Shown: positions 2,739 through 32,787 of the stretch, piece after piece
How positions within the stretch are numbered: position 1 is the first letter of the stretch
Layout of the letters: every line of letters begins with the position of its first letter
Assembly: GCA_001275005.1 (NCBI GenBank)
Contig: JWZX01003385.1
Coordinates: forward strand, 1-64,000
Direction of reading: 5' to 3'
From: Chrysochromulina tobinii
Taxonomy: Eukaryota
DNA length: 64,000 nt
Made by a program: the position numbers and the translations under genes
Notes under the pieces: generated by a model
Told to the model about the DNA's origin: nothing
The model's database searches: none
Seen by the model: the letters and a program-made list of their open reading frames with translations, nothing else

Positions 2739-4054
2739 ATGGCGAAGGTGGCAGTAGTGCTCGTGATGAGCGCGCTCGTCTCGTCGGCGCACACGTTCCC
2801 CATCGCTTCGGCAGCAGCCAGCAAGCTGCGACAATCACTCACGCGCGGTCGGGCACTCGTCGTGGAAGTGACACAGCAGAGGGATTCCGAGGCCTGGAAA
2901 CTCGACGTGACCGAGCTGTCGGCGCGGCTGCGGGACGCAGGTGCGACGGCGCTCCTGGTCCCACCGCATTTGCTCGAGGCGGTACTGGAAGAGCAGGCCA
3001 CCGCCAAGGGCAATTTCCCTGAGCCGCTCCCAGTGCTCTGCACCATCGATGCGTCCGACGCGACGACGACGAGCGGCTCCACGGACGCACTCGGCGCGAT
3101 GAGCAGCGGCCGAGCTGCTGGCGTGGCCGTGCGCCATGCTGGCGAGCCCACCGTGGGACTCGCGTACGTGGCACGCATGACGGAGGACGCTGGGCTACCC
3201 CTCGTCGTCATCGCCTTGGATGAGTTCGCGCACGCGGCTGCGGTGGCGGCGGGCGCCGCCGCGGTCGTCTGCGACTACCAAATCGAGTCGTGTGCGAGCG
3301 CCTCGGCGGTTGGCGCCTCGGCGGTTGGGACGGCCGACGGGTCGACGGCGGTGAGTGCCTCCACGGAGGGATCGGCGGCGGCGGCGGGCGCAGCTCCAGT
3401 GCTCTTGGGCGCGTGGGGAGGGGACGAGGAGGAGATGTACGTGCTGCTCCTAATTGCGACGGATGGCCTCTGATCGGATCGGATGACCTCTGATTGCCTC
3501 TGAGGACCTCCGAGGACCTCTGAGGACCTCTGATTGCCTCTGAGGACCTCTGATTGCCTCTGAGGACCTCTGATGACCTCTGATTGCCTCCCTCATCAGG
3601 TACGATCTGCGCGACGCTGGGTTTGAGCCGATGCTGTTGATCGATGGGTGCCTGGGCGAGATCGGTGCGAGCTGATTACCTCTGATTACCTCTGATGGCC
3701 TCTGATCGGGCAAGAGGTGCTTGGCTGCGTGCGTGAGAGTGTTGTTACCACTGGAGAGTATTGGCACCACTGAGTCTTTCCGCGTGCTTCTGATGGCCTC
3801 TGCTTTGCTGCCCGGCAGGTGTGAACATGGGCTGGTGTGAATCGCGAGTGAAGCTGTTCCGTAGCAAGGCGTCTCGGCAGTGGGGTGGCTCGATGTTCGG
3901 TGCCACCTCTCAGGACTCGACCCCGGCCCAGCGCAACCCACGCCTGTGGGCACAGTCGCAGCGCCAGGCACGCGAGATGATGGATCACAGCGCGAGGTCG
4001 CGGGAGCTGCCACCTCCGAAGCTCAAGAGGAACACGGTGCTGGGAGGCCGCTAG
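2739..4054 (+). CDS. Signal-peptide-bearing, divergent IGPS (TrpC-fold)-like protein; 3 exons (2739-3436, 3600-3664, 3819-4054)
   Basis: Hydrophobic N-terminus; segment LRDAGATAL...EQATAKGNFPEPLPVLC; GT-AG introns 3437-3599 and 3665-3818 give a continuous frame to TAG 4052-4054; function tentative. Confidence 0.5.
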
Positions 4055-4183
4055 GACGTCTCCGCTCGGTTGCGTACAATGTAGACCTCAAACTTACTTA
4101 CTTTGGAAATTCCGCGTCGCGACGTTTTCCCCAACCCCGCGCGCCTTTTCCGAAGGCACGCGCGCGGCGCGCGTGCTTTTGGA

Positions 4184-7100
4184 ATGGGCGTGCCTGCCTT
4201 CTACCGCTGGCTGGCCGACAAGTACCCGAAGATCGTCGTCGATTGCATCGAGGACGACCCGGCCCACGGGCCGGTCGACGCGAGCCAGCCGAATCCGAAC
4301 GGCCACGAGTTCGACTGCCTCTACCTCGACATGAACGGCATCATCCACCCGTGCGCGCGCCCCGAGGGCCGGCCGCCGCCCGCGACGCACGAGGAGATGT
4401 ACGCGGCGATCTTCAAGTACATTGATCGCATCTTCTCGGTCGTGCGGCCGCGCAAGCTCCTCTTCATGGCCATCGACGGGCCAGCGCCACGCGCCAAGAT
4501 GAACCAGCAGCGCACGCGGCGGTTCAAAGCGGCCAAGGAGCGCGCCGACAAGGCGGCCGAGACGCTTGCGCTGCGTGCGGAGCTTACGGCGCAGGGGCGC
4601 GTGCCGCCGCCGCCTTCGGACAAGACTCCCTTTGATTCGAACGTCATCACGCCCGGGACTCGGTTCATGGCCGACCTCGCCCACTGGCTCCGGTTCTACA
4701 TCCAGCAACGACTGCACTCCGATCCGGGCTTCGAGGGCATTCGGGTGATCCTGTCGGACGCGTCGGTGCCAGGCGAGGGCGAGCACAAGATCATGGAGCA
4801 CATCCGTCGGCAGCGGGCCCTTCCGGGGTACGAGGCCGCCACGCGCCACGCGTGCCCGGCTGCGGCTCGCATGCAAGTGCTCACCACGGCGCCGTCTCTC
4901 CCTGATTAGGTACGAGGCCGACACGCGCCACGTCATCCATGGGCTCGATGCCGATCTGATCATGCTCGCACTCGCGACTCATGAGCCGGTACGCCGAGTG
5001 CATGCTGAGGACCTGCCTTGCATGCAACTGCTCACCACAGCGCTGAGGACCTGCCTCGCATGCAACTGCTCACCACAGCGCGCGCTCTTCCCCACTCCCC
5101 ACTCCCCACAGCACTTTTCAATCCTGCGCGAGGTCGTGCTCGACCGGAAGGCGCAGGAGAAGCAGAAGGAGAAGATCGCCAACGGCCACGTGCCCGGCCC
5201 GACGCCCCTCCAATTCCTGCACGTGTGGACGCTGCGTGAGTACCTGCAGCGCGAGTACTTCGAGGGGGTCGACTGGAGCCTGGTGCCTGCTTGATGACCT
5301 CCTTGATGACCTCCTCGATGACCTCCTGATGACCTCCTGATGACCTCCTTGATGACCTCGTGATGACCTCGTGATGACCTCCTGATGACCTCCTGATGAC
5401 CTCCCTGGGGTGGACTGGAGCCTGGTGCCTGGGGGGCTTCGACCTCGAGCCCAAGCCCTTGCATGCATGCGCTCACCACGGCGCCTCCCTCTTCCCCACA
5501 GGTGCCCGGGGGCTTCGACCTCGAGCGCGTCATCGACGATTTCGTCTTCCTCTGCTTCTTTGTGGGGAACGACTTCCTTCCACATATCCCGGCGCTCGAA
5601 ATCCGCGACGGCGCGATCGATATGCTCATCTACTCTTACAAGGCGTTGCTGCCCTCCCTCGGCGGCTACATCTCGGACGCGGGCCGCGTCCACCTGCCGC
5701 GGGCGGAGGCCGTGCTGCGCGAGGTGGCGCAGTTCGAGGAGGAGGTCTTCGAGCGCTCACGACGGCGCGAGGAGGGGCGAGCTCGCGCGCAGGCGGCACG
5801 CACGATGCAGGAGGGCGGGCAGGTGGCCCCGGGTGCCTTCGGGTCGCTCTACCCGCCGCGTGATAACGGCCAGAAGCTCCTGTGGAATGCGATGAAGGCC
5901 TTCGCCGATGCGGCCGTGATGGACGCCGTACTGCCCATCCCGGCTTCGTCCATTTCGTCCGGCTTCCACAAGGCGTCCTTCCACTTATACCTGACGCTGC
6001 TCAACCTGCACGACGCCTCGCAGCCCGACGGCTCCTTTTTGGTCAAATGCAAGCGCGCGCCGCGCAAAAAGGGCGCTGACGAAGCCGGCTTCGTCGAGCA
6101 TGCGAACGGTCTGCTAGGCGCCGAAGGGGTCGGTGCGGAGGGGGGGGAGGCGTCGGTAGAGTGCACTGTGGACGACTTCAACATGAGGCTCGCGCTGCGC
6201 CTGGAGAAGCTTGAGGAGGCGGCAGCGTCGCAGCCCGATGTGGTGCGTCACGCTGATGAGCACTCATGAGCGCTGATGAGCACTGATGAGCACTGATGAG
6301 CACTGATGAGCACTGATGAGCACTGTCCATCAGGTGCGGTACGGCGAGAGCGGCTGGAAGGAACGTTACTATGCGCACAAGCTGCAGGTGCACAAGGGGG
6401 ATGAGGCGATGAAGCGCTATGTCGTCGGGTGCTATGTGCAAGGCCTCTGCTGGACCCTAATGTACTATTACCAAGGGGTGCAGGACTGGGGCTGGTTCTA
6501 TCCCTTCCACTACGCGCCGTGTGCCTCTGATATCATCGGGTATGCGCCCTCACTGCCTATGCCCTCGCTGCCCTGTGCCCTATGCCTTGTGCCCTAGGCC
6601 CTCGCTGCCCTGTGCCCTATGCCTTGTGCCCTAGGCCCTCGCTGCCCTAGGCCCTCGCCATGCCCTCGCTGCCCTATGCCCTATGCCCTCGCCATGCCCT
6701 CGCCAGTGAGAACACCAGCTGCCCTCCTGAGCATGCCAGTGCTCACCACGGCGCCCTCGCTTCCCCACAGGCTCCACGAGTTTGCCGGCGGCCAGTTCAC
6801 ACTCGGAGCGCCGTTCACACCCTTCCAGCAGCTCATGGCGGTCTTCCCACCGTCCTCCGGCCATGCACTGCCGGAGAGCTACCGCACCCTCATGGTGATT
6901 GCGCCTGATTGCGCCCCTCATCCTGCGCCCCTGATTGCGCCTGATTGCGTCTGATTGCGTCTGATTGCGCCGCATCCTGATTGCGCCCCTCATCCTGCAG
7001 GTGCACCCCGCCTCGCCCATCATCGACTTCTACCCCATCGACTTCCGGATGGACCTCAACGGCAAAAAGTTCTTCTGGCAGGCGATCGCGCTCCTCCCCT

Positions 7101-8027
7101 TCATCGACGCCGCACGGCTGCGCGCCTCGCTCGCGCCGCTCGACACGACGCTCGAGGCCGAGGAGGCGCGACGAAACTCATTCGGGGCCGAGCTCCTCTT
7201 TGCGAGGGCTTCGTCACCGCTGGGCGCGCTCATCGTCGCTGCGACCGCTCACCACGGCGCTGCGAGCGCGGGAGCGCCGTGTCGAGCGCCACTCGACATC
7301 AGCCCGTACGTGCCGGGCTTTGGTGGCGCGCTGTCGTGGGCCGGTACGGTCGCCGATGGACCAATGATGACCGCTGATGACCGCTGATGACCGCTGATGA
7401 CCGCTGATGACCGCTGATGACCGCGTGGGGTGGGCCGGGCTCCCCACTCCCCGCGCATGCAAGTGCTCACCACGGCGCCATCGCCCCCCTCCCCCCACAG
7501 GTGACCGCGTGGGGTCGGCGGGCTCCCCGCTCCCCGCGCCGATCGGCGGCGACGCGTACGGGCTAGCGCCCTTGAAGGAATCCACGGTCGCTGGTGCGGA
7601 GTACACGCCTCCGGCCTACGTGACGCACGTGCCTCGACTGCTGCCGACGATCCACCTGCCGCCGATCGTGCTGCAGCCGCATGATCGCTGCCAGCTCTCG
7701 CGTGACTCCGAGGCGGCGTGCCGCTCCCTCGCCGCCCGCCTCGCGACCTATGGTCCGGGCAGCGCGGTACCCGTCGCGGTGGGCGGGCGTGGCGGCGGAC
7801 CGCGCTACGGCGGAGGCGGCGGAGGCGGCGGCGGCGGAGGCGGCGGCGGCGGCGGCGGCGGAGGCGGCGGAGGCGGCGGAGGCGGAGGCAGAGGCGGACG
7901 TGGAGGCGGCGCTCACGCCGTTGGCCACGCGGTGGCTCTGCAGGGCGGCTATTCACAGCAGGGCCACGCGGGGCTGCCGCCGCAACGGCACCGCTCGGCG
8001 CCGATGCCGCTCGGTGCACGACGATAG
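4184..8027 (+). CDS. XRN2: 5'-3' exoribonuclease 2 (XRN2/Rat1), 8 exons
   Basis: Motifs [81 protein letters not shown] introns 4828-4909, 4989-5111, 5283-5501, 6243-6333, 6540-6770, 6895-7000, 7344-7500 restore the frame; Gly-rich tail. Confidence 0.93.
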
Positions 8028-8226
8028 GGATGCTTACATGCATCCCCATTGGAGGTGAGTGGAGGCGAGGTGTCGGGTGGAGCGAGGGTGGGCAGAAAGT
8101 GGCCAATGCGGTGAGCAGAAACAGGCAAACGAAAGAGGGAGTTGCGGCTCTGCACTGTGCCGCTTCTGCCTCATATGATGTAATACTCGGTCGCGTCGGT
8201 TTCGCGTATCCACCGTTTGCGCGTTC

Positions 8227-10789
8227 ATGTGCGTTGGCTCCCGTTTTCCTTTCACAAGCGCCGTTTTTTCCTTTCACACCATCGTCCTGCTGCTCTTTAA
8301 GACGTGTTTCGCGATGCCGATTCAGCCGTGCCACTGCTTCTCCATGTGCACCGTAGATGAGGCACGCCAATTCCATCGCAACCTGCCCGGGCCCATAAAC
8401 CGCAGTAGCCCGTGGGCAGGCTACCTCAACGCCGTGTATGGCACCGAGGCTCGGCTGCCATGGCCATTCGATCTGCGTTCTCTCACCATGTTTTATCACA
8501 ACGACCGGCGCTGGAGTTCACGCCATCCAACGACAGAATGGCCGATGGCGACGTGCGCGCGGCGAGCACAGCCCGAGAGTAGGGGCCTGAGTTGGAATGG
8601 CCCGACGACGACAGTGTGTCCCTCCCACATATGCGCTCGCTGGACTGTGCCGCCGCCGCTGCCCGAGGCCGCTTACTCGGCGTCCGCTCTCCTCCCTCCG
8701 ATGATCCTACTGCCCGAAATCGGCAGGCAACCGCCAGACATCACCACGGCTGGCGCCTACTGGCCACTGCAGCCGGCGGCCCTTGGCGGGTACGCCGCCG
8801 CCGACGGGGCCGAGAGTAGCTCGCCGAACTCGTCCGTGCCGACGGCGAGCTTAACGCCCTCTCGAGTACAATGGGCCGCGACGCGATCTGGAGGCTGGGT
8901 CGAGGTGCTGCGGGAGCCCTCCGGCCTCGAAGGCCAGGCCGGGTACGGCTGCTGGTTCACGCCGGCGAGTGGCACAGGTGTGTGCTGGGTCCACGTGGAT
9001 TGATGGCTATTGATTGCTTTTGATTGGTTAACACCGGCGAGCGGCACCACAGGTGTGTGTGGGTCCAGATTGATTGCTACTTTTCGTTGATTGATGGCTA
9101 CTAATGGCTACTGATTACTCTCTCGGTTGCTTGTGATTGCTATCGACTGCTATTGATCGGTTCACCCCTGCGACCGGCGCAGGCATTTGGGTCAACGTGG
9201 GGCGCACCTGGGCAGTCGCGACCAAGCCGGAGCTATACCTGCCGTGGTCCGAGGGAGACCTCGTCGGCCGTTGGCTTTCCAAATTTGGGTTTCCACAGCG
9301 GCGTCTCGTCGAGGATCGAGATTTCGAGCTCAGCGTGAGCATCTGCCGCGCACACGCGGCCGCCGAGGCGCTCAAGACGGCGCGAGGCGGCGCGCTGAAG
9401 ACCGATCGATGCGAGGCGGAGTGGTTGTTGCGCCGCCGCCCTCCGAATGCGTCTGCGGCGGCGAGGAGGCCGACACCTTCCGTTTCGTCACCTTCCGTTT
9501 CGTCACCTTCCGTTTCGTCACCTTCCGTTTCGTCATCTTCTGTTTCGTCACCTTCTGTTTCGTCACCTTCCGTTTCGTCACCTTCCGTTTCGTCACCTTC
9601 TGTTTCTGCGCTGAGGCCGTTGCCTTCAGGGCCGCCGCTGGCCACGCTCCCTTCAGGCCCTTGTATGATGGCAGGTCATCAGTGGTCGTCAGTGGCAGGA
9701 CATCAGTGGTCATCAGTGCTCTCCTCGGGCCCTATGATAGGAGTGGTCGGCTCGTCGCAAAGCCCGCAGCATGCATGGAACCCGTTGCGCTACCGCCTCG
9801 TGCCGCATGCAATGTGCCGGCTGCACGATACGTGCCGCTGCACGCTCGCGGCTGCCGCGGCGGCATCGGACCCTAGTGCTCTTCCGCGACGCGCCCGGGA
9901 CGGCGCTCAGCACGACGCGGCGCCCGCCAGTCAGCCCACGGGGCATCCGCTCAACACGACGCGCTCGGAGGCTCTCTCGGGGGACGCTCATTGGCTCGGC
10001 TATCCCGAGATATTCCCATTTATGGCATACGAACTTGGCCTCGACAGCGTCCAGATTGGGCCGATCGCAGGCGGGGCGTACCGAGGCGACGCCTCTGTGA
10101 ACGGCCAAGGCGACGCCTCGGTGAGTGGCAGGGCTGCTAGTGCTAGTGCTGACAGTGCTGCTAGTGGCAGTGCTGCTAAAGCCGGTAGTGCTGGGAGTGC
10201 TGGTCCGGCTGCAGGAGCGGGCGGGCAATTAGGGCAATTAGAGCAATTAGGGCAGTTAGGTCAGTTAGGTCAGTTAGGTCCGGCTGCAGGAGCAGGCGGG
10301 CATGGCAGCCGCCGAGCTCGCCCTCTCTCGAGCGCAGCGCGTCCGCTCCCGCCCCCAGGCACCCCAGGCTGGCGGGCGGAGATTGTGATCACGACGGCTG
10401 CATGCATGGGGGCGCCCGTTAGGCGCATGCCCAAACTTGGCTGGCGGACTTGCTTGGATGGTTGGGTGGAGGTGCGAGCGGGCTACTTGGGCGACGATGC
10501 GAGCGGGTCCACGGTGGCTGGCCATCCCAACATGCATCACAATCGCGGGCGGCGAGAGAGCGGTGATGGCACGCGCCGTCAAGTGGGCGCCGTCGCGGGC
10601 GCTGGGCGTGCGTGTGACTGTGACCAAACCGCCCGCCTCCTCAACTGCGATGGCGCCCACTGGAGCTGCCGGCCCTATTGCAGGGCGCCACACCAGTCTG
10701 ACAGCGCTCGCCGCCAGATGCTGTGCTCCCGCGGGGATTGTGCCGGGTGCCAGTTCTGCGCGGCGCCTCGGGGCGTACTTCCGGTTTGA
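8227..10789 (+). CDS. Uncharacterised Cys/Trp-containing protein; intron 8978-9182
   Basis: ORFs 8227-9003 and 9137-10789 join via a GT-AG intron to give GYGCWFTPASGT-GIWVNVGRT; start uncertain; possible further in-frame intron 10203-10277. Confidence 0.55.
9474..9605 (+). repeat. 15-bp coding tandem repeat (SSPSV)n
   Basis: ccttccgtttcgtca repeated about 8 times. Confidence 0.9.
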
Positions 10790-11268
10790 TACCGACGGTC
10801 TGCGGACTGCGCAGTCGGCGCTCTGGATCGTTCTACGTTCACATCTGCAGCCGCTCACGGTTTGCGGAAACCGCAAGCTCACAGCCGTTTCACACAGGGC
10901 AGTAACCATGTGTTAGAAATCACACACATTCACATTCACACGTGTGTCGTGTTCTCTGTGGCCATCCGCTGGACATCTTCCTGTTTGTGCAGAAGCATCT
11001 TCTTGGGCGTTTCCAGCATGCTCCGATTACAATTGTGTCAGATAATTCACACCAATGGTTTAACCATTCACAATCAGAAAAATTTCTCGATGCGACGCCT
11101 GTGAAGTCCACCTCGTCGGGGACGATGAGCGATCTGCTGCGTCTCTCTGGCGACGGCTCCGGCACTCGTTGGGGCTTCAGGAGCGACGAAGAAGTGCGAG
11201 CCGGACCTGAAGATCATCGTGAGCCTGGGACTCCGAATCCCGTACCGGCGCGCTCACCTGAGAGGCCC

Positions 11269-12329
11269 ATGCCGCCCGATCCTGAGTACGGCACCTCCGA
11301 CTACTGGGAGAGGCGGTATGCTGAGCGCGTGGACGAGCAGACCTTCGAGTGGTATGGCAGCTTCGTCGCCCTCGAGGACGCGATCGTCGCCGCGTTGCCC
11401 TCGACCAAGGCTCTCATCCTGCACGTCGGCAACGGCAACAGCGCGCTGCCCGAGCGGCTCTGGGCGTGCGGGTACACGTGGCAGCACGCGAGTGACATCT
11501 CCCAAAGTGTACACCCAGCATGCGAGTGCTCACCACGGCGCGACTCTCGCTTTCCCCACAGGTACAAGTGGCAGCACGCGAGTGACATCTCGCCCACGGT
11601 GATTTCTCGTATGGCCGAGCGGACGAGGGACTGCGAGGGACTGCACTGGGCAGTGGAGGACGCGACTTGCATGCCGCACGCCATGGAGACGTTCGACGCC
11701 ATCATCGATAAGGGCACGTACGATGCGCTCGCGACCGGATCGTACCGCGAGAGGGCGTTGGTCTCCGAGGCGAGCTTGCATGCAGATTGCGACTGATGAG
11801 CACTGATGGCCTCCCTCATCAGGCGTGGCGGGTGCTCCGAGGCGAGCTTGCATGCTGATTGCGAGTGATGAGCACTGATGGCCTCCCTCATCAGGCGTGG
11901 CGGGTGCTCCGAGGCGAGCTTGCATGCAGATTGCGACTCATGAGCACTGATGGCCTCCCTCATCAGGCGTGGCGGGTGCTCCGAGGCGAGCTTGCATGCT
12001 GATTGCGACTGATGAGCACTGATGGCCTCCCTCATCAGGCGTGGCGGGTGCTCCGGACGGGTGGCGTATACATCCTGATCTCATCACTCGAGTCGACGGA
12101 GCTAGCCCTCGGTCCGCCTGCGTGGAGGCAAGGCGAGTGGCACGTGTCCAAGAGCAGAGTCGAGACGGGCATGGGGCGCAGGTGCTTCGTCTTTCGCGCC
12201 ATCAAGCGTCAAGGTACCACCGACGCGAGCTTGCATGCTGATTGCGACTGATGAGCACTGATGGCCTGTTCCATCAAGCGTCAAGGCACCACCGACGCGC
12301 AGCGAGAACAGGAAGTCAGCGCCACATAG
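11269..12329 (+). CDS. Class I SAM-dependent methyltransferase (METTL13 N-terminal / EEF1AKMT4-like)
   Basis: YGTSDYWERRY, FEWY, ILHVGNGNS, FDAIIDKGTYDAL, AWRVLRTGGVYILIS; introns 11472-11561, 11770-12038 (GC-AG) and 12214-12285; TAG 12327-12329. Confidence 0.85.
11770..12054 (+). repeat. 4 x 72 bp tandem array of (53-nt GC-AG intron + 19-nt exon-like piece)
   Basis: Unit gcgagcttgcatgc(a/t)gattgcgactgatgagcactgatggcctccctcatcag-gcgtggcgggtgctccgag starting at 11770, 11842, 11914, 11986. Confidence 0.92.
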
Positions 12330-13943: not shown

Positions 13944-16900
13944 ATGGCGGCCTCCCCCATTTTGGTCAAGGAAGCTTTTGGGGTCAAGGTCCCGCGCCCT
14001 CGCGTGCTGCAATACTCCCCACCGTTACCCTTTGAGCGTGACAAGGCCGTGCCATTCGATACGAGCTTCTCGCCGGTTGGCATCATGGCCGACCTTGCCT
14101 CCATCCCTCCCGCGTACGGCCACAAGAACCTCCTGAAGGCGTGGGAGCACGGGGAGCATGCACGCCAGCAGCACTCGCCGCGACCTGGCTTGCCAGCCGT
14201 GCCTTCGACGCATGCGCCGCTCAAGCCCATCCGCCGCCTCGACTTTGGCGCCGACAGGCGGAGCATCGGCCTGCTGCAGGTGCGAGTGCCGTCGTCGTCA
14301 GAGGGCAGTGGTTACCCGGCGAAGCGTCCTTTCAGCCCGCCTATGCACCTCAAGCATCTCTTCGTGATGCCGCACTATTCACCGGAGCTGCGCGCCGGCG
14401 ACGCCCCGCCCTCGCCTCGCCTCTACCTGCCACCGCCAACGCCTCCCCAGTATGGCGTGCCGGTATCGAAACGCAAGCACTCGTCGCAACGGATGGCGAT
14501 TCCACACGAAGGCGGCAGCGTCGGGACCACGGGGGTGGCCTCGGCCCCACTCCTCACGGCCCACTACACGGGCAACTACACGCTCTCGTCGTCCCCTTCG
14601 CTGCCCATGCTACTGCCCTCAGGCCCGCGAAACGCCCCCAGTGGAAACGCCGCCTCCCCTCCTCCCCCCCAAGTTTCGTCACCGTATGGAGGACCCGAGC
14701 TCCCGAGGGCCGCGTGGTCCACCGGCGCCGTGGCGAGCACCGGTCGCAAGTTGACGCCCTCGTCGTCGCTGCCAGCGCTTCCACAGATCCATCCCAGAGC
14801 GCATGCCGATCCGACCCAAATTAGGCAAGACGCGTCTTCTGCTCTGGGCCGACCCAAATTAGGCAAGACGCGTGGAGAGGCTACGATGATGGCCACCGAG
14901 GCCACCGCCATGACGGAGGCGGATCTCGCCGCGATCTCGCCGCGATCTCGAGGCGATCTCGCCGCGATCCGGCTGCAGGCGGTGCGGCGGGGGCAAGTGG
15001 CGCGACGCCGCGCTGTGGTGAGCACTCGAGCGACTCAGCAGCACCTCGCCGCTGCGGCAGAGAAGTATGATCCAAATATGGGACGGCTGCCTAATATGGG
15101 ACGTCCAGCGCTGTGGGAGGCTCGAGATTCCCACAGCGTCGATGAGACCTCTGCGCGCCACCTCGCGGCCATCAAGCTGCAGGCCGCACGTCGCGGGCAC
15201 GCGCAGCGATGCAAGCTGCATGCGGCGCGCCCAGCCCTGCATGACGCGCCCGTCGCGGCGCATGCAAGTGCCCGGCACGGCGCACCGACGGCCTCCGCGA
15301 GTGTGAACGTGAGTGTGAACCCCATCGGCTGGGTGCGCGAGATGGTGGCGCCATTCGCTTGGGTGGTCTCGGATGCGCGCATTGGCCGACTGGAGCACAT
15401 GGCGGCGGGGGGGGGGCTGACCGTTGAAGAGCGTGCTGAACTCCTGGAGGCCGCGCGCACGATGCAGGCCATCCAGCGCAATGAGCGGAGCCAGGCCAGG
15501 GAGCACCGCCATCAGCCGTTGGGGGTGCCAACGGCCGCCCACGACGGCGCCCTGCTCCCGGATCGGCGTGCCAAGGGAGGCGCCCACCACGGCGCCAGCA
15601 AGGGCGCGCAGCACGGCGCGATGAAGGGAAGGAGGGAGGTGCGACGCGCCGTGGTGGGCGAACCGCCGCTGGGCGCTGCGACGGGCGCGACGACGGCGGA
15701 GGCGGCGGCGGTGCCGAAGCGGGCCGCGGACAAAGGCGCGAAGGACATCGCGGCTGCTGCTGCCCAAGACGGCGCCCAAGAGGCCAGGGTGTCCAAGGGC
15801 GCGCCCAAGACGGCGCCCAAGGCGGCGTCGGGAGCGGCGCCGAGCGCGGCGAAGGCGGCGTCCAGGGGCGCGCCCAAGACGGCGCCTCGAGGTGCGTCGG
15901 CAGCGACGGCGACGGCGGCGGCCATGGGCGCCGTCTTGGGCGCGGACGTCTCGAATGGGTTTGCAAGCAGCTTGGGACGCCACTTTTATGCCGTCAATGT
16001 GGATGCGGTCGTGGCGCATGCGGTCCACGAGGTTCTCGACTCCGTCGTGAGCTTGGGCATCGACGAGCACGCGAGCGCCGTCGCGGGCGCAGCCTTGGCG
16101 CCGAGCGTGGCGAAGCCGGCGTCCAAGGCCGCGTCCAAGACGGCGCCCAAGGCGGCGCCCAGCGCGGTGCCGAGCGCGGCGAAGCCGGCATCCCATGCCG
16201 CTCCCAAGACGGCGCCTAGAGCGGCGCCCAGCGCGGCGCCGAGCGCGGTGCCGAGCGCGGCGCCGAGTGCGGCGCCGAGTGCGGCGCCGAGTGCGGCCAA
16301 GTCGGAGGCGGAGGTGGCGGCGGAGGCGTCGGCGAAGGCGGAGCAAGAAGCGGCCGAGAAGGCCACGATCGCCATCCAAGCGCGCGTGCGCTCGAGCTTC
16401 GTCGCCAACGGCTATCGCAACGAGCTCAAAGCGCGCCGCGCGGCTGCCACGATCATGCAGGCCTCCTACCGTGGGCACACCGGCCGATCCGCAGCGGCCA
16501 AGCAGCTGCGTGTGGAGGCGCATGCGGCGGCGCTGGTACAGGCCCTCGTGCGCGGTCGCTCGGAGAGAAAGGTGCAGAAGCTCGCGGTAGCCGCCTCCGA
16601 GCCCTCCTCCGCCGAGCCCGCAGCAGCAAAGCCCGCAAAGCCCGTCATCTCCGAGTCATCTCCGAGTTTAGTCATCTCCGAGCCCACCTCCGCCGAGCCC
16701 GCAGCTGCAAAGCCCGCAAAGCCCGTCATCTCCGAGTCATCTCCGAGTTTAGTCATCTCCGAGCCCACCTCCGCCGAGCCCGCAGCTGCAAAGCCCGCAA
16801 AGCCCGTCATCTCCGAGTCATCTCCGAGTTTAGTCATCTCCGAGCCCACCGCCGTCGACCTCGTCACCCCCAAGCCCGACAGCACTGATACCACCGCCTT

Positions 16901-22312: not shown

Positions 22313-22506
22313 CTTCTATTGGGCGGGTCGACTGAGCCTGTGTGCGTTAACGTGTGTCCGCGTGGTGCGTTCTGCGTGCGGCGGGTAGCCGGGTAGGCCG
22401 CACGCCAGAGTGTGGCGCGTGCGCATCACGATCACCATCAGAGAGGAGTGTCCCGAGGCCCATACAGCGTTTCAGCTTTAGAAGCGGCGCGCGGTATGGG
22501 TAACCG

Positions 22507-23355: not shown

Positions 23356-23552
23356 GCGATGTCGCACTTCTCCTTCTCGAGAATGCTTCCTGGCGACTCT
23401 GTGCATGGCGCCTCACGAATTCCTAGGTTGTGCAATTGGCGGTCGTAGTCGTGTGCATGCAAGCTCACGTGGGGCCGCCCAAGACCCCAACCAAACGCGT
23501 CATGTCGAACGTACTGTCCCGGTAAGTTTACCGGTCATGTTTTCGGTGCAAG

Positions 23553-25913
23553 TTGTCGGAGCTGTTCGTGTCGCTCGCTCGCACACGCAGCCCGGAAGCG
23601 GGAACAATGGCGCGCATCGGGAGCCTATGCCCGATTGGCCTACCCGAAGCGAAGCAGCTGAGCACGTATGCCCTGCTGCCAATCACCGCAGCATACCGGT
23701 CGGGCATCGAATTGGCCAAGACCGTCGATCGTGGAGTGTGGTCTGCTAGCATGCATGATCAAATCTCCCCTATCCGACCAGAACTGCTGGCTCCAGAGCT
23801 TCGAGGAATGAAGGACTTTGAGCTCAAAATTTTGAGTCCACGGCCACACGTCCGTGCGCCTGGGGACCTGGCTGTTGCAACTCTTTCACAAGAGGGCGCA
23901 GGGTCACCGACACTATCACCTCGAGAAGGTGCAGAGGGTCAAGTCTGGGAGACCGAACTCTTCGGAATTCACCGAATCGAGCCCATCGCGCCTCGGAGTC
24001 TAAAACCACGAGAGTGCCGCCAACCACGCCGAGCTGACACGTGCGCAATAAACGCACCGACAAGCACACCAGTGACTGCCACTGGCGCCGCTGCTGACTT
24101 CGGCAGTAAACCGAAACGCGAGTTGGCACAGTGCGAGATGCCGAGGAGCAGTAGGTCCTCACGCTCTTCTTCCCGCTCTTCAAGATCCGCTGCCGCTGGT
24201 GCCAACGCTGTGAACAATTGCGGCACCCAAGCTATAACCCAACCTACCGGTAGCACCACTCCTCGGGGCTGTCCTGAAGACGAAGCTTGGCGAAGGGTCG
24301 TTTCGGCGGCTCAGATGGAGAAAGTGGAGGAACCTCAACTGCAAACTGGTGGCGCGAACTCCGCTCCTGTCGCTGCTGGCGTTGCGACCTCCAGTGGCGC
24401 CTTGCAGCCCCGCAGAGGCCCGAGGGCAGAGGCTTCACCGCGCATGCCAGCGCAGCTCGCCATCGTCTCAGCGCCACTGCCACCCCGGCGAGCTACCGGT
24501 ACTGCCACTGGGGACTTTGAGCCAGTGCCACCCGAGGACGCTGCGCCCCTCCCACCCCGGCGAGCCGCGATCCATTATGTCGGCTCAGTGTACACAGAGC
24601 CGTATGTGGAGCCGGCCGTCGCGCAGAACCGTATGGAGGTGGCCGTCGCGCGTGCTGTCGGCGCTCCTCGTAGCAGCCTCCCCGCGGGCGCTGGTCGAGC
24701 CTCGGGCCGCAAGCTGTCGCCGCGCCGTCCACCACACGCTGCGGACATCTCGTCACAGAAAGGAAGGCCTTTGCCGACACAGCCGTTACAGCCTACACAG
24801 CTGACCAAGGGAAAGGCTTCGCCCCGACCGGTCGTAAACGCCTCCTTGTCGCCCCCTTCGTCGCCCTCTTCGTTGCGCCGTTCGGCGGCGGCGGCGGCGG
24901 CGGCGGCGGCGGAGGCGGCGACGGCGTTGGCGGAGTTGGCGGCGGCGTCGGCGTCGGCGGCCTTCGGGGCCGTGGCCACGGCGCCATCTGCCATTGCGGA
25001 GACTGCGGAGATTGCGGAGATTGCGGAGATTGAGGAGATTGAGGAGGGCAAGCCCGCGCGGCTGCCTATACTGCCTCCGTCGAGCCTACGCCAATGGGCG
25101 CGCCAACGGGTGATCAAGGACGAGGACTTGCCCGCGTGCACTTTCAACCCGGGCGAGGTCATCATGTTCGGAGGCTCCGCACAAGAAAGGGCGGCTCTCG
25201 GGCGGATGCTGGTTCGAATGGGAGAGGCGCATACCTTCAGCCGGCACGCGCCACGAGCGCGCGCGTTGGGCAGCCGAGGCGCTCTCCTGAGCAGCAGAAG
25301 CAACCGCAGCAGCCGCGGCTGCCGCAGCCGCAAAGCCTCTCGGCAAGGTTCCCCGGAGGGCCTCTCGGGGTGCCATTCTAGGCAAGGATCTTCGGAGGGC
25401 CTCTCAGGGAGCCATTCGGCACGTGAAGCCTTGCCTAATTTGGCACCAGAGCCACATGATGGCATCAGAGCTCCTCGACCGCCTGTGCACAGCGATGCAG
25501 CCATCGCTGCCGGACCGTGGCCGCCACGACCGCCTCCGCACCCGGCACCGCCGATTTCGGGCGGAGACACCAAAGTATACCGTCGGCTGCCAAAGTTCGG
25601 CATCCAAACCGCTAACTTGCAGCCCGACCAGTGGCACATCGAGTCGGCCGCCTCGCCCGCAGCCGCCGCGATGCTGCCGCCGCCTCTGGAGCGGTTTGCG
25701 AACGCAGGCCGCGCCAGTGGAGCCCGTGCGGGGCGGCCCATGCTGCATTCCGTCGAACAGGCGTCTCCGGCGCTCACGTCCATGCAGGGCGCCCTGCGAG
25801 CGCGGCAGGTGAAGGATGTGGTGGAAGGATACGAATCTGCTGGCGGCGGTGAAGATCAAGATGCCATCGCTGGTTGGCCATCAGCTTGGTTAGTACAGCC
25901 GACTGTAGCTTAG
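23553..25913 (+). CDS. Uncharacterised low-complexity protein
   Basis: 786-codon ORF, Pro/Ala/Ser-rich; no recognisable domain. Confidence 0.5.
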   Translation: MSELFVSLARTRSPEAGTMARIGSLCPIGLPEAKQLSTYALLPITAAYRSGIELAKTVDRGVWSASMHDQISPIRPELLAPELRGMKDFELKILSPRPHVRAPGDLAVATLSQEGAGSPTLSPREGAEGQVWETELFGIHRIEPIAPRSLKPRECRQPRRADTCAINAPTSTPVTATGAAADFGSKPKRELAQCEMPRSSRSSRSSSRSSRSAAAGANAVNNCGTQAITQPTGSTTPRGCPEDEAWRRVVSAAQMEKVEEPQLQTGGANSAPVAAGVATSSGALQPRRGPRAEASPRMPAQLAIVSAPLPPRRATGTATGDFEPVPPEDAAPLPPRRAAIHYVGSVYTEPYVEPAVAQNRMEVAVARAVGAPRSSLPAGAGRASGRKLSPRRPPHAADISSQKGRPLPTQPLQPTQLTKGKASPRPVVNASLSPPSSPSSLRRSAAAAAAAAAEAATALAELAAASASAAFGAVATAPSAIAETAEIAEIAEIEEIEEGKPARLPILPPSSLRQWARQRVIKDEDLPACTFNPGEVIMFGGSAQERAALGRMLVRMGEAHTFSRHAPRARALGSRGALLSSRSNRSSRGCRSRKASRQGSPEGLSGCHSRQGSSEGLSGSHSAREALPNLAPEPHDGIRAPRPPVHSDAAIAAGPWPPRPPPHPAPPISGGDTKVYRRLPKFGIQTANLQPDQWHIESAASPAAAAMLPPPLERFANAGRASGARAGRPMLHSVEQASPALTSMQGALRARQVKDVVEGYESAGGGEDQDAIAGWPSAWLVQPTVA

Positions 25914-26350
25914 AGTACACTGGTCCCGTCGGTGAGTGAGTGTTCAGTGTACATTTTTTTCACGTCAGGACACTATCCGCACAGCCGCGCATGAACCACA
26001 AGAGACGGCCACCGAGTCCGAGACGAGAAGTGCGAAGCCCAACGATCGAATGCACAACGCGCAACGCTTGAGGCGAGGATGGAACGATGCTCGATGGATC
26101 TCCACGGACCACGCTCCTGGGCGACGCTCCGGCTCGGCGCACGGGGCGGTCGGGGGGGGGGCCACGGGCGCGGATAAAACTAAGAGAGAGATAGAGAGAG
26201 ATTTGGAGAGGGGTGAGGACCCAATAAACACACTACACATTTCACAGCCATTTGGTCGCCTTCTCGCGAGCCAATCGCGCACTTTTGTCCATCCACTTTG
26301 ACACAATCGCGTGAATGACGACTGACATTGGGAGGACGACGGCTCGCCCA

Positions 26351-29300
26351 ATGGCTGAGTTGACCCTACCCTCCAAGTTCAAGACTCTTTGGCAGCACTG
26401 CTCCGCACTCTCGAATGCAAACTACTGGGTCAGTGTGGATGGGCTCGGCAATGCGGAGCTGGAGGACGACATGCGCTCGGCGGCTCACGTCGTGCATGGC
26501 GGCATGCTGCACAAGTTCCGCAAGTCTGGCCGCGAGAAGCCGCACCGGCGTTTCGTGCGCGCGACGGGCGGCACAACTGCCCCGGATGGACGGCGCTCAC
26601 CTGTCGTGCTCCAGTGGGACAAGAAGGCCGCGCCGGTGGTGCGTGCTGACGAGCAGGTGTACGAGTCGTGCTTCCAGGGCGGCCCGGCACCGGACGCCCC
26701 TGGTTGCTTCCAGGTCATCCTCGACAAGCGGATGGTCTTCCTCGTCGCCGACTCCGCTGAGGAGAAGCAGATCTGGGTGCTTGGTGACCCTAAATGGAAC
26801 CCTAACCCCAACCCAAACTCTCACCTTAACCCGAACCCGAACCCTAACCCTAGGTGCGCGGCATTAACGCGCTCGTCGCCCAAGGGATCTGCATGCTGCA
26901 GCGTGACGACGAGCGGCTGGGCGCCGAAGTGGCCCCCGACGGGCCGGGCGAGTGGAGCGCAGTCGTTGATGCCGAGACTGGCGCTGTCTACCTTCGCGAC
27001 TACTCGAGTGCGAACGAGCACTGGATCGTTCCCAACCAGAGTACGCTCTCGATCCGCAAGGCTGACCCATGATGACCGATGATGACCTCTGAAGACCAAT
27101 TATGACACCCGATGACCTCTGATGACCTCTGATGACCTCTAATGACCTTCCCGCTCAGGTGCTGCCGGGCTGCCACCGCCGCCACAGGCCGCTGGCCGGT
27201 CGGGTGCACGCCCACCGCCGCTGCCGCCCGAGGCGTACGAGGCCGAGCCGGACCAGAGCGCCAAGAGCGAGGTTGGAGACTATAATGAGGGCGAAGGCCC
27301 AAATATGGACGGAGACCCAAACATGGACGGATACCCACGCGGCAATTCGCGCCTCACGCGTCCGTGCTCATCACAGCGCGCGTGCCTGGAGAGCGCACCC
27401 GCGCTCAAGCCATCGGTGCTCCGCACAGCACTCCCGCCGCCGGGGCTCACGGAGGAGGCGCCGCGCCGTGATGATTCGCACGTGCGGGATCCGCTGGCTA
27501 ATTGGATGATCAATCAGGCCGAGGAGCGCGCGCGCGTCTTCCGCGACCTGCAGGCTCAGGTGGACTGATTGCCTCTCTGATGGCGTGCATGTGATTGCAA
27601 TCGATTGGCATCCCTGAGTGCCTCCCTGCGGGCTTGCATGCTGGTCTCCATGGTGGGTCCTGATGGCCTCCAATGGCGCCTGATGGCCTCTGATGGCTTC
27701 GGATGACCTCTGATGACCTCGGATGACCTCGGATGGCCTCGGATGACCTCTGATGACCTCTTATTGACCTCTGATGACCTCTGATGACCTCTGATGACCT
27801 CGAGTCCGCAGGTGGACGACGAGGAGGAGCGCCGGAGAGTCGATCTCGAGGAGGACGAGCGACGCCAGCGCGAAGTAATCAGGGAGGCAATCAGGGAGGT
27901 GAAGGGCAGGGAGCAGAGGCAGCGCGAAGCCGCCGACGAGGCCGAGAGACATCGCCGGATGGCGGAGGAGCATGCGATCGCTCAGGCCAAGTACTGAGTA
28001 CCTCTGATTACCCCGGATTGGCACTGATGGTCCCTGAATGCTCAAATGAGCACCCCTGATTACCCCTGATTGCATTGCAAGGCATGCAGGTTCAAACAGG
28101 ACAAGTACCTCTGATTACCCCTGGATGCACCTGGTGGTTTGCAGGTACGAACAGGAAAAGGCTGCCTGGGAGGCGGCTGAGAAGATTCGACACACAGCAA
28201 CGGCGACCGACCAGCTGCAGGGGGCGTTGATGACACGGGACGCGCCCACGCTGCGAGCTGCGATCTCGACGTACGGGCCGATCCTCGAGGACGCCGGAGC
28301 GTCGTCCCGGGCGGACTTGGAGTTGGCCAAGGAGTACCTGACGAAGCTCGATGCCGCAGCGGCCACCTTTGCCAGGCAGTACGCTGGATGACCTGATTGA
28401 GCCTGACTGCCCCTGAGTAGCCCCTGAGTACGTTGGATGGCCTGATTGAGCTCGGGCGGGGAGATTGAGCCGCTGAGTACGATGGGTTGCTTCGTACGAC
28501 TCAGCCGTCTGAGTGCCCGCTGAGTGCTTGCTTTCGGATCAAGGCGTGCTTGCTTTCGGATGCTTGCAGGTACAACGCGGCAGTTGCAGAGCTCCACCAG
28601 CTGACCCATGCGGACGTGTCGCAGCTCGAGGCCGGGGCGACGTTGACGAGACTCGGCCACGTGGCGGAGCGCGCCGCGGCGCTCGGCGCACCCGAGGATT
28701 TGATGCATGCAGCGCAGGTGCGCGCGAATGCGCTGCATGCAAGCCACGTGGAGCTGCTGCACGCGCGCGCGCGCGCCGAGGCGGAGGTGCTCGACACGGC
28801 GCGCGCGACGCATGCCATCGGGATCGTGGGGGCAGACGCATTGCGCGCGGCGCTCGCACACGCCGCCTCGGTGCAGCTCGAGGGCGAAGTGCTCACCACG
28901 GCGCAGGCGACGCTCGAGGCGCTCCTTCGTGCCGAAGCCGAGCGTGAGCTTGAGCACGCCGCGGCGACACGCGCGCTGGAGGAGGCGACAGCGGCGGCAC
29001 AAGCCGAGCTCATGCGAGCTGCGGAGACGGGTGAGACGCTGCGTGAGTTTGGACGCTGCGCCACCCTCCATGAGGCCCTCCAACGCGCTCTCGCTCATAA
29101 TCTCGCTGTGCCCGTCGAGCGCCGTGTCGAGCACCGTGGGGCCGAAGAGGCGCGGCAGACGCTGATCTCCCTCGAGCTCGCCGAGCGTGCGCACCTCGAC
29201 GAGGTGCGCCCGGGATTGCCACTGAGTGCCCTTGATTGCATCGCTCATTCACCATGAGGCAGTCTCTGATGGCCTCTGATGGCTTCCCACTAGCATTCCA

Positions 29301-30854
29301 CAGATGGCCTCTCAATTGCCTCCCTCATCAGGTACGGCTCGCCTCCGAGGCCCTCCACGTGGCGCTCGCGAGGGACGACGAGGAGGCGCTCGCCCTCTGC
29401 ATGCCCCACGCGCTGCCCCTACGCCCGTACATCTCGCTGATCTCGCCGGGCCTGATCGAGACCGCGGAGCAGCGCATGCATCTGCTCGCGACGGCGCGTG
29501 CCACGAGGGCGCTCGAGACGGCGCTCGCCCATGCGGAGGAGATCGGAGCCGAGAGCGTCCCCGAGGGCGCGTGGGCGGCGCTCGAGACGGCGCTCCGGCT
29601 GGCCGAGCGGGTGGGCTTGCAAGGGTTGCTCGTGCGCAAGGCGGCGGCCAAGCTCAAGGAGATGACCGAGGCCGAGGAGGCGGCGCGGCGGGAAGCAGAG
29701 GCACTCGAGTACCTTCGCCAGGCAGAGGCAACCAAACGTGAGCAGGCGGAGCGCAGGCGACAGGTAACGTCCTCTGATGGACTCCTGATGGACTCCTGAT
29801 TGGCTCATGATGGACTCCTGATTGGCTCGTGCTGGACTCCTGATGGACTCCTAATGGACTCCTGATGGACTCCTAATGGACTCCTGATTGGCTGATGATG
29901 GACACACTCATACTGGCCTTCATGCTTGGCTCATGTGGTTGACCTCGTGATGATTGACCACTTGATGACCTCGTGATTGGCCTGGTGATGACCTCGTGAT
30001 TGACCTCTTGATTGTTCTGGCAGGAGGAGGGGAAGAAGGAGAAGGAGAAGGAGGCGCGCCGTCGTGAGCGCAAGGAGGCCGAGCGAGCGGCGAAGATCAA
30101 AGAGGACGATGCACTCACGCGCGCTGCGGCGGCGCAGTCGTGGAGCATGCACACCGCCCCCGATGGACGCAAGTACTATCACAATCCGATCACCAGCGTG
30201 ACCACGTGGGACATGCCCGACGAGCTCAGGGCGAGATCGAGATCGGACGAGCTCAAGGAGCGGCAGGCAGACGAGGCGGCCGCCTCCCCGGCTCCACGGT
30301 CAAGCCACGCCTCCTCGAGCACGGCCGTGCAGCAGCCCCCGACCGAGGCGCCGCGGGCTGTGCAGCAGCCCCCCACCGAGGTGCAGCAGCCCCCCACCGA
30401 GGTGCAGCAGGCAGCATACGTCTCTCGTGTGGGCAAGCTCGATGGCGGCGACCACGACGGCGCCTCTCGTGTGGGCAAGCTCGATGGCGGCGACCACGAC
30501 GGCGCCTCTCGTGTGGGCAAGCTCGACGGCGGCGACCACGACGGCGCGACCAACGACCCGTCGAATACGAGCGCGACCAAGGTCGAATATGAGGTCGAAT
30601 ATTCGAATATGAGCGCTAGGCAGCTCCGAAAGTTTTGCGCAGCGCGCAACGTCGAAGTCCCCGACGGCGCGGGTGTGGAGCAGGTGCGCGTACTCGCGCT
30701 CGCCCACCGGAACTTGCCCCCCGTGACGTGGCAGCGCACCAAGGCGCCCGACGGCCGCGACTACTACTACAACCCGAGGACCAAGATGACGAGCTGGACC
30801 AACCCCGAGCCACTCGTCTCGGACCAGCCATCCTGCCATGAGTCAGCTAGATGA
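26351..30854 (+). CDS. PH-domain, coiled-coil and WW-domain protein, about 8 exons
   Basis: PH-like GGMLHKFRKSGREKPHRRFV...EEKQIW|VRGIN; WW domains WSMHTAPDGRKYYHNPITSVTTWDMP and WQRTKAPDGRDYYYNPRTKMTSWTNP; introns 26777-26853, 27041-27158, 27560-27811, 27991-28144, 28379-28569, 29204-29331, 29764-30023. Confidence 0.75.
26777..26853 (+). repeat. Intron made largely of degenerate telomeric (CCCTAA)n repeats
   Basis: gtgcttggtgaccctaaatggaaccctaaccccaacccaaac...ttaacccgaacccgaaccctaaccctag. Confidence 0.8.
30423..30547 (+). repeat. 3 x 42 bp coding repeat
   Basis: SRVGKLDGGDHDGA repeated three times. Confidence 0.9.
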
Positions 30855-31315
30855 GGGCGCGCCCGTCGTCTCGTGGGAAGGGGGAGGGCGGGATTTGTGG
30901 CAGTGGGGGGGAGGGGGTGTGCGCGCGTGGCAATGACAACTGCTGAGACAAGAGCCAAGACCAATTGCAATACCTGTCGCGGTGTCTGGATTGCAGAACA
31001 ACGGGAACGTCGCCCGCGTGTCTCGTCTGTGGGCGGCGGCAGCGCGTGAGGTGCTTGCCGTTTTCGTCTCGTGGTAGCGTAGAACGGCCGCGGCAGCCGG
31101 ATTTTTTTCGAAAGGCGAAAGGCGAAAGACGAAAGGCGAAAGACGAAAGGCCACGATTCCACAATGACGATCCGCGTACCACGATTCCACAATGTGATGA
31201 ATCGGTCAAGTCCGCGTTACACGAAGCTGACTCGCCCCCGGTCACCTACACAGGTCACCACCCCTTGCAGATGCGCCATTCGGGGCCATTAGAGGTCATT
31301 AGGGGCCATGAGAGG

Positions 31316-32787
31316 TCACCACCCCTTGCAGATGCGCCATGTATCGATGATCGTGCGGTCGGTCGGCTCGGCGACGACGTACACGTGCTGGTGCTGGTGC
31401 GTCGCGGCGCACGAGTGGTGCGGCGCGATGGCGAGCAGGCTACCAATCGGGTACCGAGCGTACTCGAGAGGAGCGCCATCCGCCGTGCTCACCTCACCGC
31501 ACTCCTGCTTGAGATTGGAGATGCAATTAGGGAGGCAATCAGGGAGGCAATCAGGGATCATCATCTCACCTGCTTGAGATTGGAGATGCGTAGCTCGGGG
31601 TGCTCGGGGAACCCGCCGTAGCCGGTGGCAGCGCCCTGTCAGAGGTCATTAGGGGCCATTAGAGGTCAGTCCAGCCGTCCGAGGTCATTCGAGGCCATTA
31701 GAGGTCATTCGACGCAATCAGAAGCGATTCGCACTCGGGTGGAGCATCCTGTCATTAGAGCCATTAGAGGTCATTCGAGGCAATCAGAGGCGATTCGCAC
31801 TTGGGCGGAGCATCCTGTCATTAGAGCCATTAGAGGTCATTAGAGGCAATCAGAGGCGATTCGCACTTGGGCGGAGCATCCTGTCCAGCCACAGTCGATG
31901 AGGAGGGTGTTCGAGGACGGGTAGTGACCAACGACGCGAGTGAGGACCCTGACTGCCACGTCGCGCACCGCACACGTGCCGAGCGCCACTTGCGTCATGT
32001 CATAGTACAGAAAGTTGCCCGGGTGCATCTCGTCGATCCCATCGAGGTGACTCGGGGCAAGGCTGCACGTGGGAGTAGACCCAACTCCCGCCCTTGGCAC
32101 ATTGAGGCCGATGGAACGCAGCTTGGTCGCGAAGCCCACGGTGACGTCGCGCTCCTGCTCGGCAATGCGCACGATCTCGGCCGCGTTCGCCGCGTCATAC
32201 GAGTGGCCGCCATGCGTGTAGATGCCCGCGAGCGTCGTCACGCCGCTCTCCGCGAGCATGTGCACCAGCGCCACACTCGACGGATCGTTGGGATCGCAGC
32301 CATCGCGGTGGTACCCGCAGTCGACGCCCACGAAGACGCTGAGCGGGCGCGCGAGCATCTGCTCACGCACCTCGGGCCGTGACAAGCGCGCGATCAGAGC
32401 GGCCGCCTGCTCAGCGTGGTCTATCATCACGTGAAATTGTGCAAGCCCAGCGTGCAGCTTCTCCACGTCGTCCACCTTGTCGGCGGTGAGTGGCACCGCG
32501 TAGAGGATGTCATCGAAGCCAGCATCCGCAAAAAACTTGGCCTCAGCAATCGTGGAGACGGTCACACGCCGGCGCGTCCCGCCAGTTGCAATCACCCCTG
32601 CTTCAACCGTCTTGCAAGTTTTCAGGTGCGGCCGCAAGGAGCAGCCTAGTTCCTCTGCGCGCACTCGCATTCGTGCCGCGTTCGCTTCCAGCGTAGAGCG
32701 ATAGCACACTAGCGCAGGCGTCCTAACGTCGTCGAGCGTTAGTGCCTTGATAACGACGAGAGTCGAGAAGATGAAAGCAAGCAGCAT
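31316..32787 (-). CDS. D-serine dehydratase / D-threonine aldolase-like PLP enzyme (alanine racemase fold), 3 exons
   Basis: TPALV, LRPHLKTCK (PLP lysine), DCGYHRDG, YTHGGHSY, GSTPT, EMHPGNFLYYD, KQ|ECG, PHHSC, W...KGW; introns 31636-31866 and 31505-31569. Confidence 0.85.

Follow-up and report, generated by a model that had tools for sequence, protein, structure and literature searches.

Introns of the haptophyte Emiliania huxleyi reportedly contain tandem repeats of 10-11 bp with a strong strand bias, for which a role in splicing has been suggested. The arrays analyzed here lie in GC-rich eukaryotic DNA, a 64,000-nucleotide stretch of Chrysochromulina tobinii (contig JWZX01003385.1, positions 1 to 64,000; hereafter, the window), and are alike in host group, genome composition, period, intronic location and strandedness, so that strand-biased intronic repeats are probably already known in outline. 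We know of no account of the Emiliania repeats that deals with unit sequence, register with the acceptor, copies of flanking exons or antisense inserts in coding sequence. Our literature search, whose coverage excluded the Emiliania genome paper and its supplements (which may bear on novelty), returned no description of this repeat unit and none of haptophyte introns that contain exon copies; the available portions of PMC4580454, PMC12480563, PMC8775090, PMC4226036 and PMC3152781 contain no such description. Our findings indicate that the arrays form one genome-wide family of 10-11-base filler, which is likely inserted into gene bodies with duplication of 10-50 bases of target. The balance of evidence tips, modestly, toward a process in which copied repeat filler enters with a long target duplication, survives as an intron when in sense and only in frame when antisense, and is then enlarged by slippage.

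The source of the branch point and splice sites of new spliceosomal introns is a long-standing question, so far answered by Introner transposons or by isolated, rare repair inserts. Introners, which are reported from a Chrysochromulina metagenome-assembled genome, carry one splice site and recruit the other from the target duplication, in either arrangement; their duplications span 3-9 bp, with 4 bp reported for the example from Chrysochromulina, and the elements are alike along their length (PMC9860276, Gozashti et al. 2022). Introns made of break-repair filler hold miscellaneous, often mitochondrial sequence in Daphnia (via PMC3296678), and direct repeats are not enriched in Drosophila (19/77 versus 26/100; PMC3296678). 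The mirage minisatellites of amphioxus are described as length-unstable tandem copies over exon-intron boundaries (PMC3087553), and the Rogers model, named in PMC3087553 and PMC3296678, explains intron gain by tandem duplication of an exon segment containing AG|GT.

Tandem Repeats Finder (TRF) recovered all nine arrays listed in the initial annotation of the window, at 3482-3584, 5292-5404, 6253-6325, 6896-6971, 7365-7424, 27070-27148, 27680-27801 and 29774-29903 on the plus strand and at 31642-31846 on the minus strand. The window contains 60 occurrences of the motif CTRATKRCC, against 2.94 expected and a maximum of 8 among 100 shuffles; presence and location of the arrays are thus firm. Removal of 24 modeled introns leaves clean reading frames in eight window genes, and at least three sense units are found in 18 of these introns. 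Array orientation follows the host gene, as had been proposed, in 18 of 18; that introns are filled with arrays holds for these 18 and fails for the other six, which have none. The window also contains antisense arrays in open exonic frames (9669-9718, 10223-10278 and 27877-27899), absent from the earlier list. RNA contigs were compared with positions 2600-6230, the arrays from 6243 onward lying outside this coverage. They splice 3663^3818 (an array-bearing intron), 4826^4909 and 4987^5111; unspliced RNA contigs also run across 3638-3766 and 5258-5346, and may represent retention, pre-mRNA or DNA.

The gene at 2739-4053, which encodes an unknown protein, illustrates the repeat content of these introns (features are on the plus strand unless stated otherwise). 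Its first intron (3437..3599, predicted by TRF and gene model) carries a family A array at 3462-3590 that closes with the stereotyped 20-mer CTGATTGCCTCCCTCATCAG, and the opening 5 nt are the same as the first 5 of the next exon. The second intron (3665..3818), with an array at its 5' end (3672-3706), is spliced in record 24 of RNA contig set X16 and unspliced in record 10 of X13. In the DNA run X1, the first array has a summed depth of approximately 86,000-96,000, compared with 120-140 in unique DNA; the shared sequence stops in loose ends at 3601, right after CAG|GT. The end of the first intron is therefore a genome-wide repeat. An assembly artifact was ruled out by DNA contigs of the same run, which cover 2600-5346 in four pieces with zero differences. 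Rfam returned three weak hits over 3400-6200, all far under gathering scores; viral contigs gave zero matches to two repeat units, and a C/D-box identity of CTGATGA was rejected because frequent unit variants break it.

A metagenome scan with three units yielded at least 130 loci, which together with the window make up 680 kb of non-redundant sequence, enriched for arrays and not selected for strand. Among 326 period-10/11 arrays scoring at least 50, 291 belong to the family. Strand calls used coding potential on both flanks and included no splice terms. A self-trained model resolved 183 of the 291 arrays (176 sense, 7 antisense) and a window-trained model 117 (111 sense, 6 antisense), which extends the proposed bias relative to transcription beyond the window. 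One of the seven antisense calls lies within a transposon-like repeat (L004) and two are other units; L004:190-1790 and L037 share this transposon-like element, which has AAAACAC-rich ends and different flanks and carries a family A array. At least two of four gene-finder parameter sets predicted 374 introns, and 237 of them have at least two sense units; a single repeat family, its insertion footprints still readable, is thereby present in about two thirds of the predicted introns of this array-enriched sample. A tabulation of period by compartment places period 10 in exons in 5 of 275 arrays and periods 9, 12 and 15 mostly in exons, as the initial annotation would expect; it is circular because stop-bearing arrays cannot be labeled exon, and 172 of the 275 lay in unmodeled gaps.

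The units keep register with the 3' splice site. In 215 array introns, the unit A falls at -17 (67), -27 (52), -37 (39), -47 (35), -57 (33) and -67 (24), and it sits at -17 in 29 of the 39 introns ending in CATCAG. This agrees with the initial view of the unit as yUnAy-like, and its position makes the last unit a plausible branch point. Unit density is even along the intron, reaching 100-200 nt from AG. Three acceptor classes are stereotyped: ..CCCTCATCAG, ..TTGCATGCAG and the family B cassette GCATGCAAGTGCTCACCACGGCGC followed by a C-rich tract. The terminal CCCTCATCAG motif has 172 copies in the sample, and after 128 of them the exon opens like a donor, with GT or GC. The B cassette is fixed (24 nt), non-repetitive and present in 60 copies, places CTCAC at -26 to -34 in 13 of 15 B-cassette introns, and shares GCATGCAAG with certain family A fillers (11770, 12214) at their inverted start. 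DNA depth of the terminal motif and the B cassette is approximately 700 and 100 times single copy, respectively.

The key anatomy had been overlooked: many array introns hold a copy of their own flanking exon. Units or cassette occur in 258 of the 374 predicted introns, 251 of which passed flank and length filters. A splice-site-anchored duplication of 8-53 nt (median, 17) is present in 51 of these 251, against a shuffled mean of 0.9 and maximum of 4, and a junction copy lies anywhere within 102 of 243 (control, 12). The next exon is copied from its first base in 51 of 118 introns with stereotyped acceptors (control, 1/116); 29 of these copies are at or near the donor, nine come after a second acceptor motif, and the remaining 13 lie elsewhere inside the intron. 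Two layouts recur. In some introns the opening sequence copies the next exon, and the acceptor comes from the filler, as in the RNA-confirmed intron at 4828..4909 (22/23-nt copy of the downstream exon start plus B cassette) and the predicted introns at 11472..11561 (29/30-nt copy plus B cassette; a multiple of three in length and stop-free) and 45267..45343 (14/16-nt copy plus B cassette). In others the closing sequence copies the previous exon, and the donor consists of exon G and the TGA of a unit. This is predicted at 31505..31569 on the minus strand (the upstream exon end, copied perfectly over 20 nt, supplies the acceptor, and exon G with array TGAG forms the donor) and at 43175..43394 in a DnaJ-domain gene, where the intron ends in a 19/20-nt copy and holds 63-nt tandem units. 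In the predicted intron at 12214..12285, both splice sites come from a 29-nt junction duplication with array filler between. These direct repeats around arrays and inserts bear out the idea of an insertion event in the initial annotation. Its suggestion of slippage is supported as an ongoing process by whole-unit length differences between near-identical copies (60 and 10 nt for L004/L037; 56 nt for L016/L062).

Inserts in the opposite orientation are found in coding sequence, between 18-29-nt direct repeats. All six antisense arrays with a recognizable flanking repeat have periods divisible by three and lie within open frames (75 at window position 10202, 78 and 75 in L051, 69 in L111, 48 in L013 and 63, tandem, in L002), whereas over the full set of 185 repeat-flanked clusters the periods are spread evenly modulo 3 (62/56/67). 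In the window, antisense arrays comprise an array of 24-nt period inside the open plus-strand frame 9137-10786 (9669..9718, minus), an in-frame 9-bp array between 26-nt direct repeats (10202..10302, minus) and two in-frame copies of a 12-bp variant (27877..27899, minus). The antisense strand of the arrays is stop-free yet rich in YAG (54.5 per kb versus 7.9 on the sense strand), and can therefore be coding but not intronic; the strand bias thus has a simpler cause than function, since a YAG-rich strand cannot form an intron. Inverted filler between exon repeats is not obtainable by duplication of a local intron end, which makes insertion with target duplication the simplest explanation, and what would be failed antisense outcomes kept in coding sequence provide a built-in control. 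For annotation, the stop-free antisense frames yield spurious protein calls: 54 protein-database hits (P0121-P0174) are antisense frames over arrays, with EVIRGHQRSS-type repeats, and one of them, P0138, is an antisense reading in a gene model of Chrysochromulina parva and contains an array with an apparent flanking repeat.

The gene for the 5'-3' exoribonuclease XRN2 (4184..8027, seven introns, 944 amino acids) includes several of these arrangements. Pfam domains run on across its exons, and its seven junctions align without extra residues to 14 haptophyte homologs where these cover the site, the best named relatives being Prymnesium parvum, Chrysotila carterae and Diacronema lutheri. After the intron at 4828..4909 comes an RNA-spliced intron with two tandem B cassettes and no array (4989..5111), followed by introns with a 10-bp array ending in CATCAG (6243..6333), with an unrelated 7/16/37-bp repeat plus B cassette (6540..6770) and with a donor, GTGATT, that is the first array unit (6895..7000). 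Two others are composite: 5283..5501 holds the 11-bp array 5292-5404, a 44-nt copy of its own exon-exon junction and a B cassette, with RNA contigs breaking off at 5281-5287 and resuming at 5501, and 7344..7500 holds the array 7365-7424, a copy of about 40 nt of the downstream exon and a B cassette. Both may be read as two successive inserts. Homologs P0001 (84%) and P0013 cross the first three intron sites as one frame with unrelated tails, and P0005 crosses sites 2-5 likewise; two of the three sit on contigs of 7.9 (P0001) and 11.6 kb. If these are unspliced genomic frames, they would suggest that the XRN2 introns are lineage-specific.

Comparison with the described systems reveals partial likeness to each. 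As in Introners, an intron-making sequence is repeated at unrelated sites and one splice site derives from the target duplication. Unlike Introners, the common parts are the terminal 20-mer, the 24-nt cassette and the unit; intron bodies differ, matches between loci (70-88%) are array-only pieces, and duplications vary (8-53 nt, median 17) where a DNA-transposon Introner would leave a fixed 3-9 bp. Inverted 5-nt ends (CTGAT..ATCAG) occur only in the terminal 20-mer, with a hairpin in two of five folded intron ends, a count taken without shuffle control. The variable duplication, fixed 3' end and ragged 5' end of a non-long-terminal-repeat retroposon are seen in CATCAG- and B-type inserts and not in the class ending in an exon copy, and inserts end in CAG beside the duplicate without poly(A) or simple 3' tail. 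Filler between direct repeats that happens to splice recalls break-repair introns, but here the filler is one recurrent family bearing splice signals, and direct repeats are strongly enriched. Splice sites drawn from duplicated exon, both of them at 12214-12285, resemble the Rogers model, from which our introns differ in that foreign filler between the copies gives the branch point and usually one splice site. Mirage-like tandem units of variable number also span splice boundaries (TRF: 11763-12055, 31684-31885 and 43210-43398; also L015 and L064), and boundary-copy number varies between L016 and L062. They include the predicted GC-AG intron at 11770..12038, with four 72-nt copies of array, acceptor and exon start. 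Mirages copy an existing boundary and have no genome-wide filler family or antisense inserts; only 9 of the 51 exon-start copies follow a second acceptor.

From the family, strand bias, register, flanking repeats, both orientations and unit-wise length change observed here, we infer a staggered break, a source of filler, a selection filter and recent gain. In the favored process, an exon would suffer a staggered break or a pair of nicks, and repair would add filler flanked on both sides by a direct repeat; the filler would most likely be a copy of intron-end sequence already present as DNA or RNA. Sense filler brings CTGAT at -17 with the terminal CCCTCATCAG acceptor, or a B cassette with CTCAC, and the duplicate adds the missing GT/GC donor or YAG acceptor; the last unit is the predicted branch point. 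Selection would then retain exact sense inserts as introns and antisense inserts only as in-frame coding sequence, while slippage and unequal exchange add whole units and whole boundary copies. DNA and RNA runs from culture-type samples of this organism make empty-site alleles and lariats testable.

Several observations weigh against this process. No junction copy was found in 141 of 243 array or cassette introns, nor a long one at five of the nine originally listed loci (copy scores are <10 at 3437, 6243, 6895, 27041, 27560 and 29764), and a clean flanking repeat is missing from three antisense arrays (window 9669 and 27877; L027:1209). Array-free predicted introns also carry copies (8/103 anchored, 17/102 anywhere), and the nine copies behind a second acceptor and the 13 internal ones indicate that later mirage-type boundary duplication explains part of the signal. 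No empty-site allele was seen, the sole orthologous pair (L016/L062) having the same introns, and no donor was found for any filler in the approximately 0.7 Mb sampled. Most boundaries outside the window come from a gene-finder of ours that failed to find or displaced several introns in the window itself, and the genomic, unspliced status of P0001, P0005 and P0013 is deduced from contigs and tails. Selection alone may be insufficient for a 25:1 sense bias or for array-poor gaps between divergent genes, where units number 0 in 20 kb under two models and 27 in 38 kb under a third, a model-dependent hint of gene-body targeting. A rival process is remodeling of old introns without any intron birth, through amplification of a branch-point/acceptor motif, mirage boundaries and selection against YAG. 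The mirage arrays and the boundary-copy difference between L016 and L062 count in its favor, and 3'-site phasing fits growth from a terminal unit, as the YAG asymmetry between strands fits such selection. We nevertheless regard remodeling as rather unlikely: it cannot yield antisense arrays between 18-29-nt exon repeats, needs a second deletion for the 29 of 51 introns that open exactly with the exon copy, and leaves aside both the recurrence of one unit family and a fixed 24-nt cassette at unrelated loci and the homologs that appear to be without XRN2 introns.

A template-reiterating polymerase, telomerase-like or a reverse transcriptase, might instead write units de novo on a broken template strand from the acceptor end, a possibility that the initial annotation had raised. 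The fixed 3' register and ragged 5' side would suit it, as would the telomere-like intron of (CCCTAA)n at 26777-26853, unit variants with TTAGGG on the opposite strand (10223-10278, 31275-31309) and the chance-level sharing of dominant units by neighboring introns (5/106 versus 5.8 expected). Yet units are mosaic (9, 10, 11 or 12 nt), the terminal 20-mer is missing from many inserts, non-repetitive B cassettes insert likewise, and neither enzyme nor template was found (Rfam had no gathering-level match, over 3400-6200 only). Neighbors also share rare 12-mers above background (9/210 versus 144/17131, from 189 of the 251 introns after exclusion of 25 loci with other record-name types and of short loci), which points to copying. 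De novo writing is hence distinctly unlikely, and we consider equally doubtful its fullest form, in which transcribed exons of Chrysochromulina-type haptophytes would have their staggered breaks healed by a reiterating reverse transcriptase of telomerase type and most introns would stem from one enzyme and one short template, the 10-nt unit then already holding branch point, donor precursor and inverted acceptor. On the same neighbor data, a local filler donor was judged weak; B cassettes recur in neighbors in 3/119 pairs, about chance. The function first ascribed to the arrays, redundant branch points together with all-frame stops that send retained introns to decay, has a slimmer chance still. 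It draws on the sense bias, the fit of CTGAT/CTAAT to yUnAy, array-intron lengths that show no avoidance of multiples of three (78/73/64 modulo 3), unspliced RNA contigs and, from PMC4028052, common intron retention in Emiliania with premature stops in nearly all cases checked. The claim that retained introns terminate translation holds for 17 of 18 window array introns in frame and for 16 in all three frames, not for every one; all-frame stops in 202 of 215 introns exceed the 166 expected after dinucleotide shuffling, a mostly compositional effect that does not show purpose, and the intron at 4989-5111 is spliced although array-free, stop-free and a multiple of three in length. Redundancy of branch points as a purpose is not supported, given the even unit density and arrays ending far upstream of AG, such as those of 5283-5501 and 7344-7500, which end 84-106 nt upstream while the B cassette gives CTCAC at -27/-32. 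This function explains neither exon copies nor antisense inserts; upstream units and stops have probably arisen as by-products whose effect is, at most, to make intron retention less harmful, although stops may still help when it occurs. An apparent avoidance of multiples of three in B-only introns (4/21) was set aside because the gene-finder absorbs stop-free introns of such length. A chromatin signal is very improbable. The period equals the helical repeat, as in the periodic A/T clusters (PATCs) of nematodes (10.64898/2026.08.08.743475), and CG is rarer in array introns than in exons (50 versus 125 per kb), but a role in DNA shape needs no register with the 3' splice site, and no clear nucleosome-like periodicity of intron spacing emerged from 148 neighbor pairs.

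The window holds further introns and arrays. An intron predicted from the frame only (8978..9182) combines an array of TTGATTGCT type with a duplication of exon end and donor. The PH/WW-domain gene at 26351-30854, which gives an open 1107-amino-acid frame once introns are removed and a detected WW domain, has six array introns (27041-27158, 27560-27811, 27991-28144, 28379-28569, 29204-29331 and 29764-30023). On the minus strand, a sense array at 31252..31340 is flanked by 28-nt direct repeats in which the final codons and the stop of a gene are duplicated (period 61), and an intron predicted in an alanine-racemase-domain gene (31636..31866) comprises three 66-nt copies of exon end, donor and array. 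Family B cassettes, all sense, are located at 4870, 5021, 5059, 5462, 6732, 7456, 11519 and 45304. The paralog pairs L023/L070 and L067/L068 have no introns in their aligned parts. Telomere-like CCCTAA/CCCGAA repeats, C-strand sense and containing CTAAC, fill the predicted intron at 26777..26853 and another at L007:930-1245; these are possibly telomerase-healed breaks turned introns.

Other short repeats probably mark further introns at 38355-38490, 51591-51717, 51966-52230 and 60032-60144. An 81-nt exonic tandem repeat at 16595-16858, whose unit holds an 11-nt doublet (GTCATCTCCGA), is possibly another in-frame filler insert. A TPR/DnaJ gene switches frame at 42557-42603 with no obvious intron, as a frameshift or assembly slip, and long coiled-coil/IQ-type frames at 55609-59170 are interrupted by single stops near 56138 and 57125. 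A perfect 65-nt tandem duplication (1192-1319) lies close to the 3' end of an EF-hand-like gene on the minus strand.

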